From Escherichia coli (lineage in GTDB: Bacteria > Pseudomonadota > Gammaproteobacteria > Enterobacterales > Enterobacteriaceae): DNA of 23,863 nucleotides. Below the pieces are notes generated by a model. It did no database searches. It was not told the origin of the DNA and worked only from the letters and a program-made list of their open reading frames with translations. Every line of letters begins with the position of its first letter. The stretch's first letter is position 1. The position numbers and the translations under genes were made by a program. Below, piece by piece: positions 21,269-23,681 of the stretch. The stretch lies in NCBI RefSeq assembly GCF_003334255.1, contig NZ_QOWU01000065.1. One strand, given 5' to 3'.

Positions 21269-22291
21269 ATGAAAAAGCTTCGATGTGGTGTTATTGGCCT
21301 TGGTCGGGTAGGTAAAATGCATGTTGAAAATATGTATTTACTGCCTCAATTAGATATTATCTGCGCCGCCGATTATTTTATTGAGGAGATGAGCGATTGG
21401 CTTTATTCGGTAAATATAACTTCAGGGTATAAAAATTATCAGGAACTTTTACAGCGTGATGATATAGAGGCAGTTTTTATTTTCACCTCAACGGATATGC
21501 ACGAAGAGATCGTCACGGCGGCAGCGCAGGCGGGGAAGCACATTTTTTGTGAAAAACCGCTCAGCATGAATGAAGATGAGCAGGCCTCAATGGCGGTGCT
21601 GAGAAAAGTGAAAGAGAAGGGGGTGACGCTGCAGGTTGCCTTTAATCGCCGTTTTGATCCTCAGTTTCACGAGGTCTTTGAGCTGGTGCGCAGCGGCAAG
21701 ATTGGTCGGCCCCAGATGATAAAAATCACCTCCCGCGATCCGGACCTGCTACCCCATGATCTGATCAAACGTATTGGCGGTCTGATTTTTGACTTCACCA
21801 TGCATGACTTTGATATGGCTCGTTTTATGATGCAGGATGAAGTCAGCGAAGTCTATGTTAAGGGCAATACGCTGATTGATCCCAGCCTGAAAAATATTGA
21901 TGATGTTGATACGCTTGCGGTGATGCTGACTTTCAGAAACGGCGGCTACGCGCTCATTGATAACAGCCGTCGGGCGGTATATGGCTATGACCAACGGGTG
22001 GAGGTTTTTGGCTCAGAAGGGATGGCGTATGCGGATAACGTTAGTGAATCGACGGTGAAAGTTTTCAACAGCCAGCACTGCATAATGAAAAATCCTCTTC
22101 CTGATTTCACGGTCCGTTATCGCGAAGCTTACCGAACGGAAATATTACACTTTATTGATTCAGTCCTGCATCATACGCCGGTTGTCTGTACCGGCGAAGA
22201 CGCATTATTGGCCCAGCGTATCGCTATTGCCGCGCAGCAATCATTAAAAAGCGGGCTGCCGGTGAAAATAACAAGCGATATTTATCTTTGA
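21269..22291 (+). CDS. iolG2: Gfo/Idh/MocA-family inositol dehydrogenase paralog
   Basis: 340 aa with N-terminal Rossmann motif GVIGLGRVGKMH and FCEKPLS, related to IolG; SD aagagg upstream. AT-rich coding sequence (about 37% GC in a hand-counted 60-bp sample). Confidence 0.75.
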   Translation: MKKLRCGVIGLGRVGKMHVENMYLLPQLDIICAADYFIEEMSDWLYSVNITSGYKNYQELLQRDDIEAVFIFTSTDMHEEIVTAAAQAGKHIFCEKPLSMNEDEQASMAVLRKVKEKGVTLQVAFNRRFDPQFHEVFELVRSGKIGRPQMIKITSRDPDLLPHDLIKRIGGLIFDFTMHDFDMARFMMQDEVSEVYVKGNTLIDPSLKNIDDVDTLAVMLTFRNGGYALIDNSRRAVYGYDQRVEVFGSEGMAYADNVSESTVKVFNSQHCIMKNPLPDFTVRYREAYRTEILHFIDSVLHHTPVVCTGEDALLAQRIAIAAQQSLKSGLPVKITSDIYL

Positions 22292-22315
22292 CTGCATCTG
22301 TTAATAATGAATAAA

Positions 22316-22346
22316 CTCTCGCACTGAAAAGTGTGAGAGCTTTTCT
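22316..22346 (+). terminator. Hairpin plus U-tract between iolG2 and the downstream MFS gene (terminator or attenuator)
   Basis: ctctcgcac-tgaaaa-gtgtgagag (9-bp stem with one G-U pair) followed by cttttct; it ends only 18 bp before the MFS start codon at 22364. Confidence 0.6.
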
Positions 22347-22363
22347 ATACCGAGGTTAATAAA

Positions 22364-23590
22364 ATGAAAGAAACGCAGGCAACGCTGCCCCAGACATTTT
22401 ATATAAAACCAGGTAAGTTTATCTGGAGCTACCTGGGAACATTTTTATTTATGTTGGGCGGCTGTATTGAGAACAGCTGGTTATCTGCCTGGTTAAATAC
22501 GCAGGGATTTGATCAGGAGCATATCGGGCAGATTTTTGCCGGGTATGGGATTGTGGTCGCGATCACCTCTTGGCTATCCGGCGTCTGTGTGGACGTTTTT
22601 GGTCCTAAAAAGGTGATGGTTACCGGTTTTATCGTCTATCTTCTGGCTTCCGTCGCGTTTCTGAACTTTGCGCTACCCAGCCATGATTTTGGCGCCATTC
22701 TCGTGACCTATATGCTGCGTGGCGTGGGGTATCCGCTGGTTTGTTACTCCTTCCTGGTACGCCTGACCATCCAGTTGGATAATCACCAGCAAGGGATCGG
22801 CACCTCGCTGTTTTGGGTGGTCTATAACCTTGGTTTTACCATCATTGGGCCGGTGGTGGCGGCGTCGTTAATTCCTGCGTTGGGGCATATCAACGTGATG
22901 TGGGCCGGGATGGGCGTTGCGCTGCTGGGGGTTCTCTTCATGCTGGTGCTGGAACGCAATGAATTCATTCTGAAACCGCGCACGACGCCGGTCTTCAAAG
23001 AGTTATCTGCGGGTATCTCCATTATGTATGAACGGCCACGGATCGGTCTGGCGGTGATTGTCAAAACTATTAACGGTCTTGGCACCTATGGTTTTGTTGT
23101 CGTATTACCTCTGTTTCTGCTGGATAAGCACTTTACGCTTGAGGAATGGGCGAGTATTTGGGGGATTACCTTTATCTCTAACCAGGTCTTCAACATTATC
23201 TTTGGCTGGATGGGCGATAAAATTGGTTTTCGCCGAACCATCCAGATTTTTGGCAGCATCCTGACCGGTGTCGCTACGCTGATTGTTTACTGGGTGCCGA
23301 TGATATGGGGGCATAACTATGTCGCCTTTATGCTGGCGATGTGTTTGTGGGGAGCCGGGCTGGCTGGCTTTGTGCCAATGACGCCGCTGGTGCCGATGAT
23401 GGCGCCGGATAAGAAGGGGGCGGCGAACTCGGCCGTGAACTTTGGCTCCGGCCTGGGGAATTTCGTTGGGCCAGCGCTGGTCTCCGTTCTGGCAGGGTTC
23501 GGCACCGGCGTGGTGATGTATACTATGGCGGGGCTCTATTTATTCAGCGGCATTCTGGTGCAGTTTCTTAAAGTGCCTGGCGAAAAATAG
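22364..23590 (+). CDS. MFS-type transporter of unknown substrate, 408 aa
   Basis: Hydrophobic 408-aa product with about 12 predicted TM segments; SD gagg upstream of the ATG at 22364; co-directional with iolG2. Confidence 0.75.
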   Translation: MKETQATLPQTFYIKPGKFIWSYLGTFLFMLGGCIENSWLSAWLNTQGFDQEHIGQIFAGYGIVVAITSWLSGVCVDVFGPKKVMVTGFIVYLLASVAFLNFALPSHDFGAILVTYMLRGVGYPLVCYSFLVRLTIQLDNHQQGIGTSLFWVVYNLGFTIIGPVVAASLIPALGHINVMWAGMGVALLGVLFMLVLERNEFILKPRTTPVFKELSAGISIMYERPRIGLAVIVKTINGLGTYGFVVVLPLFLLDKHFTLEEWASIWGITFISNQVFNIIFGWMGDKIGFRRTIQIFGSILTGVATLIVYWVPMIWGHNYVAFMLAMCLWGAGLAGFVPMTPLVPMMAPDKKGAANSAVNFGSGLGNFVGPALVSVLAGFGTGVVMYTMAGLYLFSGILVQFLKVPGEK

Positions 23591-23643
23591 CTTCAAATAT
23601 TCTTCAAAAATCCCTTATAGCCTGTGATGTTCATCACTAAATT

Positions 23644-23681
23644 AAACCGGTTTTTATCAAGATTGATAAAGCCGGTTTTTT
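23644..23681 (+). terminator. Rho-independent terminator after the MFS gene
   Basis: Imperfect long hairpin aaaccggttttt-atca-agat-tgat-aaagccgg followed by tttttt. Confidence 0.65.

Follow-up and report, generated by a model that had tools for sequence, protein, structure and literature searches.

The iolG2–MFS transporter pair in an E. coli copy of the Salmonella myo-inositol island and a putative leaky terminator between its genes

The gene pair analyzed here is the known iolG2 (STM4433)–STM4434 pair of the Salmonella myo-inositol island GEI4417/4436, which has already been published and is not new. By its sequence, the window (the whole stretch of 23,863 nucleotides of E. coli DNA that was analyzed) is an E. 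coli ED1a-type copy of this island. As a whole, the pair is best explained as a bicistronic accessory unit that has a leaky internal terminator and feeds a non-myo isomer of inositol, an explanation that we consider somewhat probable. iolG2 and the MFS transporter gene would be transcribed together from a promoter upstream of iolG2, and the hairpin between them would act as a leaky Rho-independent terminator, as a 3'-end stabilizer, or as both. The hairpin would be a fixed element and not a regulated attenuator, and partial read-through could yield more of the soluble dehydrogenase than of the membrane transporter. The unit may import and oxidize an isomer of inositol other than myo-inositol. 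D-chiro-inositol is the most plausible candidate: once oxidized, it can enter the core pathway only through an IolI-type isomerase, and isomerase-fold genes of this type adjoin the MFS gene or are found near it in most relatives, the exceptions being L005, L008 and L011. iolI2 and iolH would have been lost to an IS66 element in this E. coli copy, so that iolI1 would be the sole such isomerase left.

The correspondence with the Salmonella island is close. IolG2 is 100% identical to the product of STM4433, and the MFS transporter, whose sequence is exactly that of E. coli ED1a CAR06527.1, is 99% identical to the product of STM4434. The spacer between iolG2 and STM4434 is also 72 nt long in Salmonella and contains an identical hairpin, with 3 point differences that all fall outside the hairpin, and the terminator downstream of the MFS gene is identical as well. 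The E. coli copy differs from the Salmonella island in that an IS66-family element interrupts iolI2 after codon 11 and that iolH is missing. The ED1a island has been described as being without iolI2 and iolH (PMC9430895), and the window likewise has neither. In the RefSeq record of the identical E. coli sequence, both ORFs are annotated at the same coordinates. The region occurs at 100% identity in 7 of 5426 complete E. coli genomes, where it is annotated as iolG2 and an MFS transporter. The lineage of E. coli that has this copy of the island is rare. The genes from iolD2 to iolH, including iolG2 and STM4434, are non-essential for in vitro myo-inositol degradation (PMC10783015), and mutants from a transposon screen cited in that paper were attenuated in enteritis models. 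The gene order and the dispensability for growth on myo-inositol, both already published for Salmonella, hold little to surprise a specialist.

The pair and its surroundings comprise the following features.

21100–21145, + strand: 17-bp perfect inverted repeat with a 12-nt loop, 12 nt past the iolD stop codon (fold, alignment).
21269–22291, + strand: iolG2, GFO/IDH/MocA inositol dehydrogenase paralog of 340 aa (ORF, TIGR04380).
22288–22317, + strand: promoter-like match (TTGACT, 18-nt spacer, TAAACT) that runs from across the iolG2 stop codon into the 5' arm of the hairpin.
22316–22339, + strand: intercistronic stem-loop of 10 bp with a GAAA loop (fold; identical in Salmonella).
22340–22349, + strand: interrupted T-tract CTTTTCTATA after the stem (d'Aubenton-Carafa-type score).
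22352–22355, + strand: GAGG Shine-Dalgarno, 8 nt 5' of the MFS start codon (sequence).
22364–23590, + strand: MFS transporter of 408 aa, polyol-porter family (RbtT/DalT/CsbX) (ORF, TIGR00897).
23623–23638, + strand: CRP-like site TGTGATGTTCATCACT with 1 mismatch (CRP-consensus scan).
23644–23681, + strand: terminator-like hairpin and T6 run that end the two-gene unit (identical in Salmonella).
23751–23783, + strand: remnant of iolI2, of which the first 11 codons match Salmonella before homology stops (alignment).
23784–23863, + strand: terminal part of an IS66-family element (GTAAGCG... terminus), replacing the rest of iolI2 and iolH.

The two co-directional ORFs were found exactly where the original prediction had placed them. 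The upstream boundary of the iolG2–MFS unit is the inverted repeat at 21100–21145 (ΔG about −33 kcal/mol, z −5.55), which has no adjacent T-tract; in E. coli Z1323 (L011), a T7 run comes after the homologous stem. At the other end, the tnpA/tnpB/tnpC genes of IS66 come next in the identical E. coli record. The position of the CRP-like site at 23623–23638 corresponds to the region of the iolI2 promoter in Salmonella, where CRP binds PiolI2 (PMC10783015). In the spacers on the two sides of iolG2, the CRP-consensus scan gave no site.

We identified IolG2 by profile matching as an inositol dehydrogenase of the IdhA/TIGR04380 type, which bears out the proposal that the first gene encodes an inositol-dehydrogenase paralog. 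The match to TIGR04380 reached 377.7 bits, above the curated equivalog cutoff of 355, and aligned residues 4–333 with profile positions 2–330. IolG2 is only 25% identical to IolG1 and, with 131 bits for NF052679 (cutoff 540), does not belong to the IolG type of B. subtilis; IolG1 is of that type (483.6 bits). The Pfam families PF01408, PF02894 and PF22725 are matched by the identical Salmonella IolG2. The translation contains GLGRVG near the N terminus (Rossmann GxGxxG), FCEKPL with the catalytic lysine of the EKP motif, and DFTMHD (D-x3-H); the EKP lysine and the D-x3-H pair presumably have the roles known from the structures of the B. subtilis IDH. The closest solved structures are 3ezy, deposited as a dehydrogenase, and 4hkt and 3euw, deposited as inositol or myo-inositol dehydrogenases. 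RefSeq names the gene 'D-chiro-inositol-2-dehydrogenase IolG2', and our full-text literature search found no paper behind this label.

The second gene encodes, on the evidence of its profile match, a member of the polyol-porter family (RbtT/DalT/CsbX). The match to TIGR00897 scored 410.9 bits (curated cutoff 375), with residues 16–403 aligned to positions 6–401 of the 401 in the profile, and PF07690 is recorded for all MFS homologs. Since inositol is a cyclic polyol, this family fits an inositol transporter. A neighbor-joining tree placed the MFS transporter of the window inside an iol-linked clade of the family, sampled in roughly 12 lineages. The profile scan of contigs with an alignment gave only homologs of at most 47% identity, and the close orthologs came from contigs encoding related proteins. 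The surroundings of 12 MFS homologs of at least 44% identity, two of them on one and the same contig of Enterococcus, were read, and 10 of the 12 lie near iol-type genes; the contig of L048 is too short to tell, and L050 has no iol-type genes nearby. None of the 34 MFS paralogs of at most 40% identity has an iol gene within 5 kb. One of the distant paralogs, the enterobacterial L024 (35% identity), was discarded as a substrate clue, its neighbors being pectin and osmoprotectant genes and not ribitol/arabinitol operons.

The literature still assigns no substrate to STM4434 (PMC10783015), in line with the original description of the transporter, and we found no demonstrated substrate in it for any other member of the iol-linked clade. 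According to their gene neighborhoods, members of this clade are nearly always accompanied by iolG-type dehydrogenases and IolI/IolH-type isomerases. Membership in this clade of the polyol-porter family makes the proposed role with another inositol isomer plausible. The substrate hypotheses for STM4434 are thereby narrowed: the protein belongs to the polyol-porter family and to its iol-linked clade, and the set of genes near it in most relatives fits an isomer feeder. We tentatively extend this idea to the whole clade, although we regard the extension as doubtful: its members, which come from Enterobacterales and Firmicutes, might be unrecognized importers of non-myo inositol, most plausibly D-chiro-inositol, that travel in a portable feeder module with dehydrogenases of the IolG2 type and isomerases of the IolI/IolH types and with a hairpin limiting the transporter. 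If this were true, a hairpin or terminator upstream of the transporter gene would hold transporter expression below that of the enzymes.

The pair had also been described as markedly more AT-rich than iolC/iolD and as possibly acquired separately. The first statement holds for iolG2 (GC 0.461, GC3 0.496) in comparison with iolC/iolD (GC 0.561, GC3 0.61–0.64), but not for the MFS gene (GC 0.517), whose GC3 of 0.633 is the same as that of iolD and which owes its lower overall GC to codon positions 1 and 2. iolG2 is equaled or exceeded in AT-richness by other genes of the island, namely the core genes iolE (0.426) and reiD (0.441) and also iolT1 (0.456). The pair therefore forms no distinct compositional unit, and on the GC3 values we rejected a separate acquisition deduced from composition. 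Nor is separate acquisition supported by the divergence of IolG2 and the MFS transporter, which parallels the divergence of IolC and IolD in two other lineages: the identities of IolG2/MFS and IolC/IolD are 90/91% versus 90/93% in one lineage and 70/79% versus 80/84% in the second. In the Firmicute-like L007, iolE, iolG2, iolG1, an iolI-like gene, an iolH-like gene, the MFS gene and iolD make up one co-directional run, with identities of 29–64%.

The intergenic region between iolG2 and the MFS gene (72 nt, 34.7% GC) contains a hairpin at 22316–22339 that carries the tail CUUUUCUAUA. The stem of 10 bp, including 5 G-C pairs and 1 G·U pair, is closed by a 4-nt loop (ΔG −15.2 kcal/mol), and the G·U pair 22321·22334 can pair only in the RNA of the + strand. 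The fold of the 72-nt region is stronger than those of its shuffles (z = −3.6, 0 of 200 as good; z = −4.0, 0 of 100), and the hairpin is also the minimum-energy and centroid structure within 134 nt of context. In the predicted folds, the GAGG Shine-Dalgarno at 22352–22355 is left free by the hairpin. The originally noted hairpin and T-tract (22316–22346) are thus real; the gap from the end of the T-tract at 22346 to the ATG at 22364 amounts to 17 nt and not to 18 nt as first given. A promoter would not fit into the 24 nt between the end of the stem and the ATG, and the hairpin must therefore be read through or lie in the 5' UTR of the transporter gene, as had been argued. The U-tract (C-UUUU-C-UAUA) is short and interrupted, with a T score of 3.64, and our re-implementation of the d'Aubenton-Carafa terminator score gave d = +10.4. 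As computed, this is a modest intrinsic-terminator score with a weak U-tract. A simple scan found 5 terminator-like sites against 3.6 ± 1.9 expected, a total no higher than chance would give, but the site at 22316 was by far the strongest. We found no description of the hairpin in the literature on the Salmonella/ED1a island.

The same position is occupied by unrelated hairpins in some relatives, as in L006 (11 bp followed by U7, d = +31.7) and L048 (d = +7.7), and by long stems with U4–U6 in L007 and L008. In every lineage with a hairpin there, the end of the stem is 23–50 nt from the start codon, again without space for a promoter. L011 (E. coli Z1323), the closest divergent homolog, has kept the stem with an identical 5' arm, but it has no U-tract (d = −32); a U-tract is missing from L010 and L049 too, and L005, which likewise leaves no room for a promoter, shows no convincing hairpin. 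These four relatives indicate that termination is not universally conserved. Structured regions were found upstream of the MFS gene in 5 of 9 cases (z ≤ −2.86), and in 8 of 19 other co-directional intergenic regions of the same loci (z ≤ −2.18), a control that includes a REP-like hairpin in the iolG1–srfJ spacer of the island. We claim no enrichment for the hairpin position because structure is about as common elsewhere in these clusters. No compensatory covariation was observed among the two distinct homologous hairpins, which show one change of G·U to G-C and two broken pairs.

The relatives without a U-tract also bear on another function of the stem-loop. It could be a non-terminating stability or processing element that shields the iolG2 segment from 3'-to-5' exonucleases after cleavage, a protective role that REP hairpins have between malE and malF. 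The persistence of a hairpin without a U-tract at this position in L011, L010 and L049 agrees with such a role, and the REP-like hairpin in the comparable iolG1–srfJ spacer suggests that elements of this kind are in use in the island. However, U-rich tails directly follow the stem in the window, Salmonella, L006, L048, L007 and L008, and a pure stabilizer would not need them. We assign a small but real probability to this function in place of termination.

We similarly regard it as improbable that the hairpin is an efficient terminator of iolG2 and that the MFS gene is transcribed from a promoter overlapping it (TTGACT at 22288–22293, TAAACT at 22312–22317). Transcripts starting from about 22324 would be without the 5' arm and could not form the hairpin, so that they would escape termination. 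The low GC content of the spacer and the promoter-like match itself speak for such a promoter, as does H-NS, whose binding typifies AT-rich promoter regions and which in Salmonella binds a fragment upstream of STM4434 (PMC10783015). On the other hand, such matches are no commoner than in shuffles (4 found, 4.7 ± 2.1 expected), and neither hexamer is intact in the near-identical sequence of Salmonella (TTAACT/GAAACT) or in L011 (TTAGCT/GGGTCT). The same study names PiolI2 and reports a PiolG2 promoter fragment, but names no separate STM4434 promoter (PMC10783015). The match at 22288–22317 is probably a chance match; we rejected an internal promoter, whose sole candidate is no better than chance and not conserved.

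The original prediction called the hairpin attenuator-like, and its position directly 5' of the transporter gene would fit a regulated attenuator (riboswitch, leader peptide or protein-mediated antitermination) that is opened by the substrate. A 6-codon ORF at 22307–22327 (MNKLSH*) even overlaps the 5' arm, and a ribosome translating it would melt the stem. However, no competing fold exists in the 134 nt of context, where no other helix uses either arm, and no Rfam family matched at the gathering score or at E ≤ 1. No Shine-Dalgarno precedes the mini-ORF, whose ATG is not found in L011, and the 24 nt from the iolG2 stop codon to the stem are too few for a sensing domain. The lack of an alternative fold and of an Rfam match, together with the unconserved mini-ORF, led us to reject regulated attenuation, which we deem very improbable. 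It is equally far-fetched that the near-palindrome in this H-NS-bound, AT-rich spacer is neutral or a protein-binding site on DNA, for instance for the RpiR-type repressor IolR, which represses most iol promoters (PMC10783015): the fold is stronger than all shuffles, the G·T in the stem pairs only as + strand RNA, and other iol promoters do not carry the arm motif (3 matches in the window, 1.4 expected, with two of the 3 being the arms of the hairpin itself), so that a shared operator motif was rejected. From the original prediction there remain the ORFs, the hairpin that is read through or lies in the 5' UTR, the dehydrogenase paralog and a plausible isomer role; the pair-wide AT-richness, the separate acquisition and the attenuator are not supported. 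Expression of the transporter must pass through, or start within, a weak terminator.

Among the known systems, the polyol-porter family with the Klebsiella ribitol and D-arabinitol permeases resembles the MFS transporter in the full-length TIGR00897 match above the cutoff. Unlike these permeases, the transporter belongs to the separate iol-linked clade and is at most 40% identical to the sampled non-iol members. It shares the island and the MFS superfamily with IolT1 and IolT2, the characterized sugar-porter inositol transporters of Salmonella. However, both of these match TIGR00879 (367.5 and 315.2 bits) and XylE-type models, which the MFS transporter does not, and it has no detectable pairwise similarity to IolT2 (BLASTP E = 0.75). 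Kroeger, Stolz and Fuchs reportedly found in 2010 that, of the four permeases of the island, only two take up myo-inositol.

In the D-chiro-inositol route of B. subtilis, oxidation by IolG is combined with isomerization by IolI to 2-keto-myo-inositol. A dehydrogenase, an IolI/IolH-type TIM-barrel gene and a transporter would make up a comparable isomer feeder set, and the combination of a dehydrogenase with an IolI/IolH-type gene is found close to the MFS gene in Salmonella, L006, L049 and L007. The window differs from this arrangement by the absence of iolI2 and iolH. Leaky or intercistronic hairpins are known from the rplL–rpoB attenuator and the malE–malF REP. As in leaky intra-operon terminators, a stem-loop with a U-rich tail lies here between co-directional cistrons without room for a downstream promoter; the U-tract, in contrast, is short and interrupted and is absent from a divergent homolog. 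The effect expected of a leaky intra-operon terminator is a lower expression of the distal gene, here that of a membrane protein.

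We found both open reading frames of the pair where the original prediction had placed them, in agreement with an identical, RefSeq-annotated E. coli record, and the stem-loop proposed between them is also real.

Features of the iolG2-MFS region
21100-21145: inverted repeat downstream of iolD
21269-22291, plus strand: iolG2 (340 aa)
22316-22339, plus strand: hairpin in the 72-nt iolG2-MFS spacer
22364-23590, plus strand: MFS, the transporter gene (408 aa)
23623-23638: putative CRP-like site
23644-23681: hairpin with T6
23751-23783: first 11 codons of iolI2

The gene identities are nearly certain. 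The assignment of IolG2 as an inositol-dehydrogenase paralog is borne out by its match to TIGR04380 (iolG equivalog; 377.7 bits against the curated cutoff of 355). Its translation carries the motifs GLGRVG, FCEKPL and DFTMHD, and the closest solved structures are those of a dehydrogenase (3ezy), an inositol 2-dehydrogenase (4hkt) and a myo-inositol dehydrogenase (3euw). With IolG1, a protein of the B. subtilis IolG type (NF052679, 483.6 bits), it shares only 25% identity. RefSeq names it "D-chiro-inositol-2-dehydrogenase"; a full-text literature search for a published source of this label found none. The transporter gives a full-length match to TIGR00897, the family of RbtT/DalT/CsbX polyol permeases (410.9 bits, cutoff 375), and thus does not fall among non-sugar MFS families, in keeping with the original prediction. 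Similarity was not detectable to the characterised Salmonella inositol transporter IolT2 (E = 0.75) or to the other MFS protein of the island, and a search for a close solved structure returned none.

The pair had been considered markedly more AT-rich than iolC and iolD. This holds for iolG2 (GC 0.461 and GC3 0.496, against 0.561 and 0.61-0.64 for iolC and iolD) but not for the transporter gene, whose GC3 of 0.633 is the same as that of iolD; its deficit in total GC sits at the first two codon positions, as is to be expected of a membrane protein. The genes iolE (0.426), reiD (0.441) and iolT1 (0.456) are as AT-rich as iolG2 or more so. Composition is mosaic across the whole island, and the two genes do not stand out from it as a block of their own. 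The proposed separate acquisition fared no better. IolG2 and MFS are 90% and 91% identical to their counterparts in E. coli Z1323 (L011), against 90% and 93% for IolC and IolD, and 70% and 79% against 80% and 84% in another locus (L005). This parallel divergence, together with the single operon of a locus with Firmicute-like neighbours (L007), argues against it.

The hairpin has a ten-pair stem with one G.U (22321.22334), capped by a GAAA loop and followed by the tail CTTTTCTATA; its dG is -15.2 kcal/mol. The spacer folds better than all of its shuffles (z = -3.6, 0/200; on repetition z = -4.0, 0/100). As DNA the palindrome is imperfect. Only in the plus-strand transcript does the G.T position pair, as G.U, an argument for a role at the RNA level, on the coding strand. 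Neither the GAGG Shine-Dalgarno sequence (22352-22355) nor the ATG at 22364 is sequestered. Wherever a lineage has a hairpin here, 23-50 nt separate the end of its stem from the MFS start, too few to accommodate a sigma-70 promoter and a 5' UTR. Transcription of the transporter gene must therefore run through the hairpin or start at an overlapping promoter, and the earlier reasoning that the hairpin is leaky or lies within the transporter's 5' UTR stands. The only candidate for such a promoter is TTGACT, an 18-nt spacer and TAAACT at 22288-22317; however, shuffled sequences yield matches of equal quality at least as often, and the Salmonella and L011 sequences have degraded versions of both hexamers. 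A regulated attenuator, as the term "attenuator-like" had implied, found no support: no alternative fold competes with the hairpin in 134 nt of context, and an Rfam search of the region gave nothing at gathering score or at E <= 1. The 5' arm is covered by a six-codon ORF (MNKLSH*, 22307-22327) with its stop codon in the loop, but this ORF lacks a Shine-Dalgarno sequence and, although kept in Salmonella with an N to K change, has no ATG in L011; it is probably a chance ORF. A DNA operator is unlikely: the remaining iol promoters have no copy of the arm motif. We found no CRP-like site in either spacer beside iolG2. Overall, the hairpin is an unremarkable, weak terminator-like element, and nothing about it points to regulation.

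We compared terminator strength among relatives by our own re-implementation of the d'Aubenton-Carafa score (d) with current energy parameters, so that the values are approximate.

Approximate d of hairpins in loci of MFS homologs
Window and Salmonella: +10.4
Hairpin with T6 after the MFS gene: 0.0
L006: +31.7
L048: +7.7
L007: -3.3
L008: -1.9
L011, L010 and L049 (stem kept, U-tract absent): -28 to -47
L005 (best hairpin found, none convincing; ERIC-like insert): -53.5

The hairpins of L006, L048, L007, L008, L010 and L049 are unrelated in sequence to that of the window. The only divergent homologous copy, in L011, has an intact 5' arm, G-C in place of G.U, two broken pairs at the top of the stem and no U-tract; no compensatory covariation was found between the two. 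Judged from these sequences, termination is not the conserved property. Nor is a hairpin demonstrably enriched at this position, as 8 of 19 other co-directional spacers of the same loci have z <= -2.18, compared with z <= -2.86 for 5 of 9 MFS-upstream spacers. The controls include a second intercistronic hairpin of the island, a REP-like GCCGGATAGCG...CCTATCCGGC in the iolG1-srfJ spacer (11506-11540, z = -4.85) ending 41 nt before the srfJ start. In L005, the iolG2-MFS spacer (5766-6000) is 235 nt long with an ERIC-like segment, GCGAATCCCCTGGAGC..., and z of +0.5 to +1.5.

As the most likely mechanism, and with confidence slightly outweighing doubt, we propose that iolG2 and MFS form a bicistronic accessory unit transcribed from PiolG2, the promoter upstream of iolG2. 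A fixed leaky intrinsic terminator, a stabilising stem-loop, or both, would lie between the cistrons, leaving the transporter less expressed than the dehydrogenase, and the unit would end at the hairpin with T6. For partial termination by the internal hairpin itself, the chances appear evenly balanced. Upstream, 12 nt past the iolD stop, the 17-bp perfect inverted repeat has a 12-nt loop, no adjoining T-tract and a dG of about -33 kcal/mol (z = -5.55); the Salmonella copy is identical, and the L011 counterpart is a canonical terminator with a shorter stem and T7. Downstream, homology to Salmonella continues through the MFS terminator, the CRP-like site and the 11 iolI2 codons, directly followed by an IS66-family end (GTAAGCG...) up to 23863. 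The remainder of iolI2 and iolH are missing, lost through an IS-associated event, and the iolI2 promoter region with its putative CRP-like site is left an orphan, driving nothing. Elsewhere in the island, a full-length Rfam STnc490 match (4875-4998, minus strand; 146 bits, gathering score 56) lies at the 5' end of an IS200/IS605 tnpA copy between iolT2 and iolB. About 1.9 kb (14921-16796), holding an IS91-family pseudogene and a 115-aa hypothetical ORF, separates the 388-aa MFS from iolC; the gap is only 60 nt in Salmonella (L003), indicating an E. coli-specific insertion.

We surveyed the neighbourhoods of MFS homologs from public assemblies.

Genes around MFS homologs (MFS identity in parentheses)
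Salmonella (L002-L004): iolC, iolD, iolG2, MFS, iolI2, iolH
L011 (91%) and L005 (79%): iolC, iolD, iolG2, MFS, then end of island
L006 (77%) and L049 (69%): compact set of IolI-like, iolG2, MFS, another IolI-like; RpiR regulator in L049 only
L007 (53%): co-directional iolE, iolG2, iolG1, IolI-like, IolH-like, MFS, iolD
L008, L009 (same Enterococcus contig as L013) and L012: iol genes close by
L010: isomerase-fold gene fragment immediately upstream
L048: contig too short for any neighbour to show
L050 (48%): no iol genes, the sole clear exception

No iol gene lies within 5 kb of any of 34 paralogs at <=40% identity (Kluyvera, Citrobacter, Enterobacter, Enterococcus and others); one inspected is surrounded by pectin and osmoprotectant genes. 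In a neighbour-joining tree, the window MFS falls inside the iol-linked clade. The iol-linked relatives, the paralogs without iol genes and the tree placement together support involvement of this protein in the transport of inositol or cyclitols. The proteins of the L007 run (1036-9180) are 45-64% identical to the enterobacterial ones (IolI-like, 29%), which suggests that the accessory genes of the Salmonella island share ancestry with a Gram-positive type cluster.

In Salmonella, L006, L049 and L007, genes for a dehydrogenase, a transporter and an isomerase-fold protein of the IolI/IolH type cluster. Going by the known B. subtilis pathway, these are the genes that would be required to feed in an isomer whose oxidation product needs isomerisation to 2-keto-myo-inositol; scyllo-inositol would require no isomerase. 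D-chiro-inositol would be the obvious candidate substrate, an assignment we make tentatively, with the balance against it. If the unit feeds an isomer needing an isomerase, only iolI1 is left for the job in the E. coli copy. The iol-linked clade of polyol porters might constitute a family of inositol-isomer importers that has so far gone unrecognised; this seems rather unlikely and, if true, would be of modest interest.

The iolG2 and MFS genes are already known and annotated, and the observation is genuine but ordinary. Of 5426 complete E. coli genomes, 7 carry the 2.8 kb around them at 100% identity and one further genome at 82.5%; an iol cluster occurs in <2% of E. coli genomes (PMC9430895). 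In the annotated record NZ_CP018991, the surrounding 24 kb is the Salmonella-type myo-inositol island (iolT1, iolT2, iolB, iolA, reiD, iolE, iolG1, srfJ, iolI1, MFS, iolC, iolD, iolG2, second MFS); remnants of IS200 and IS91 break it up, and an IS66 element comes next. For STM4434, the Salmonella ortholog of MFS, the function is listed as unknown; H-NS binds upstream of both iolG2 and STM4434, and CRP binds PiolG2 by SPR (PMC10783015). Mutants of both genes were attenuated in a transposon screen cited in that article. IolC, IolD and IolG2 of the window are 100% identical to Salmonella enterica proteins and MFS 99%. The MFS sequence is exactly that of CAR06527.1 from E. coli O81 strain ED1a, whose island is nearly colinear with that of Salmonella, but without iolI2 and iolH (PMC9430895).
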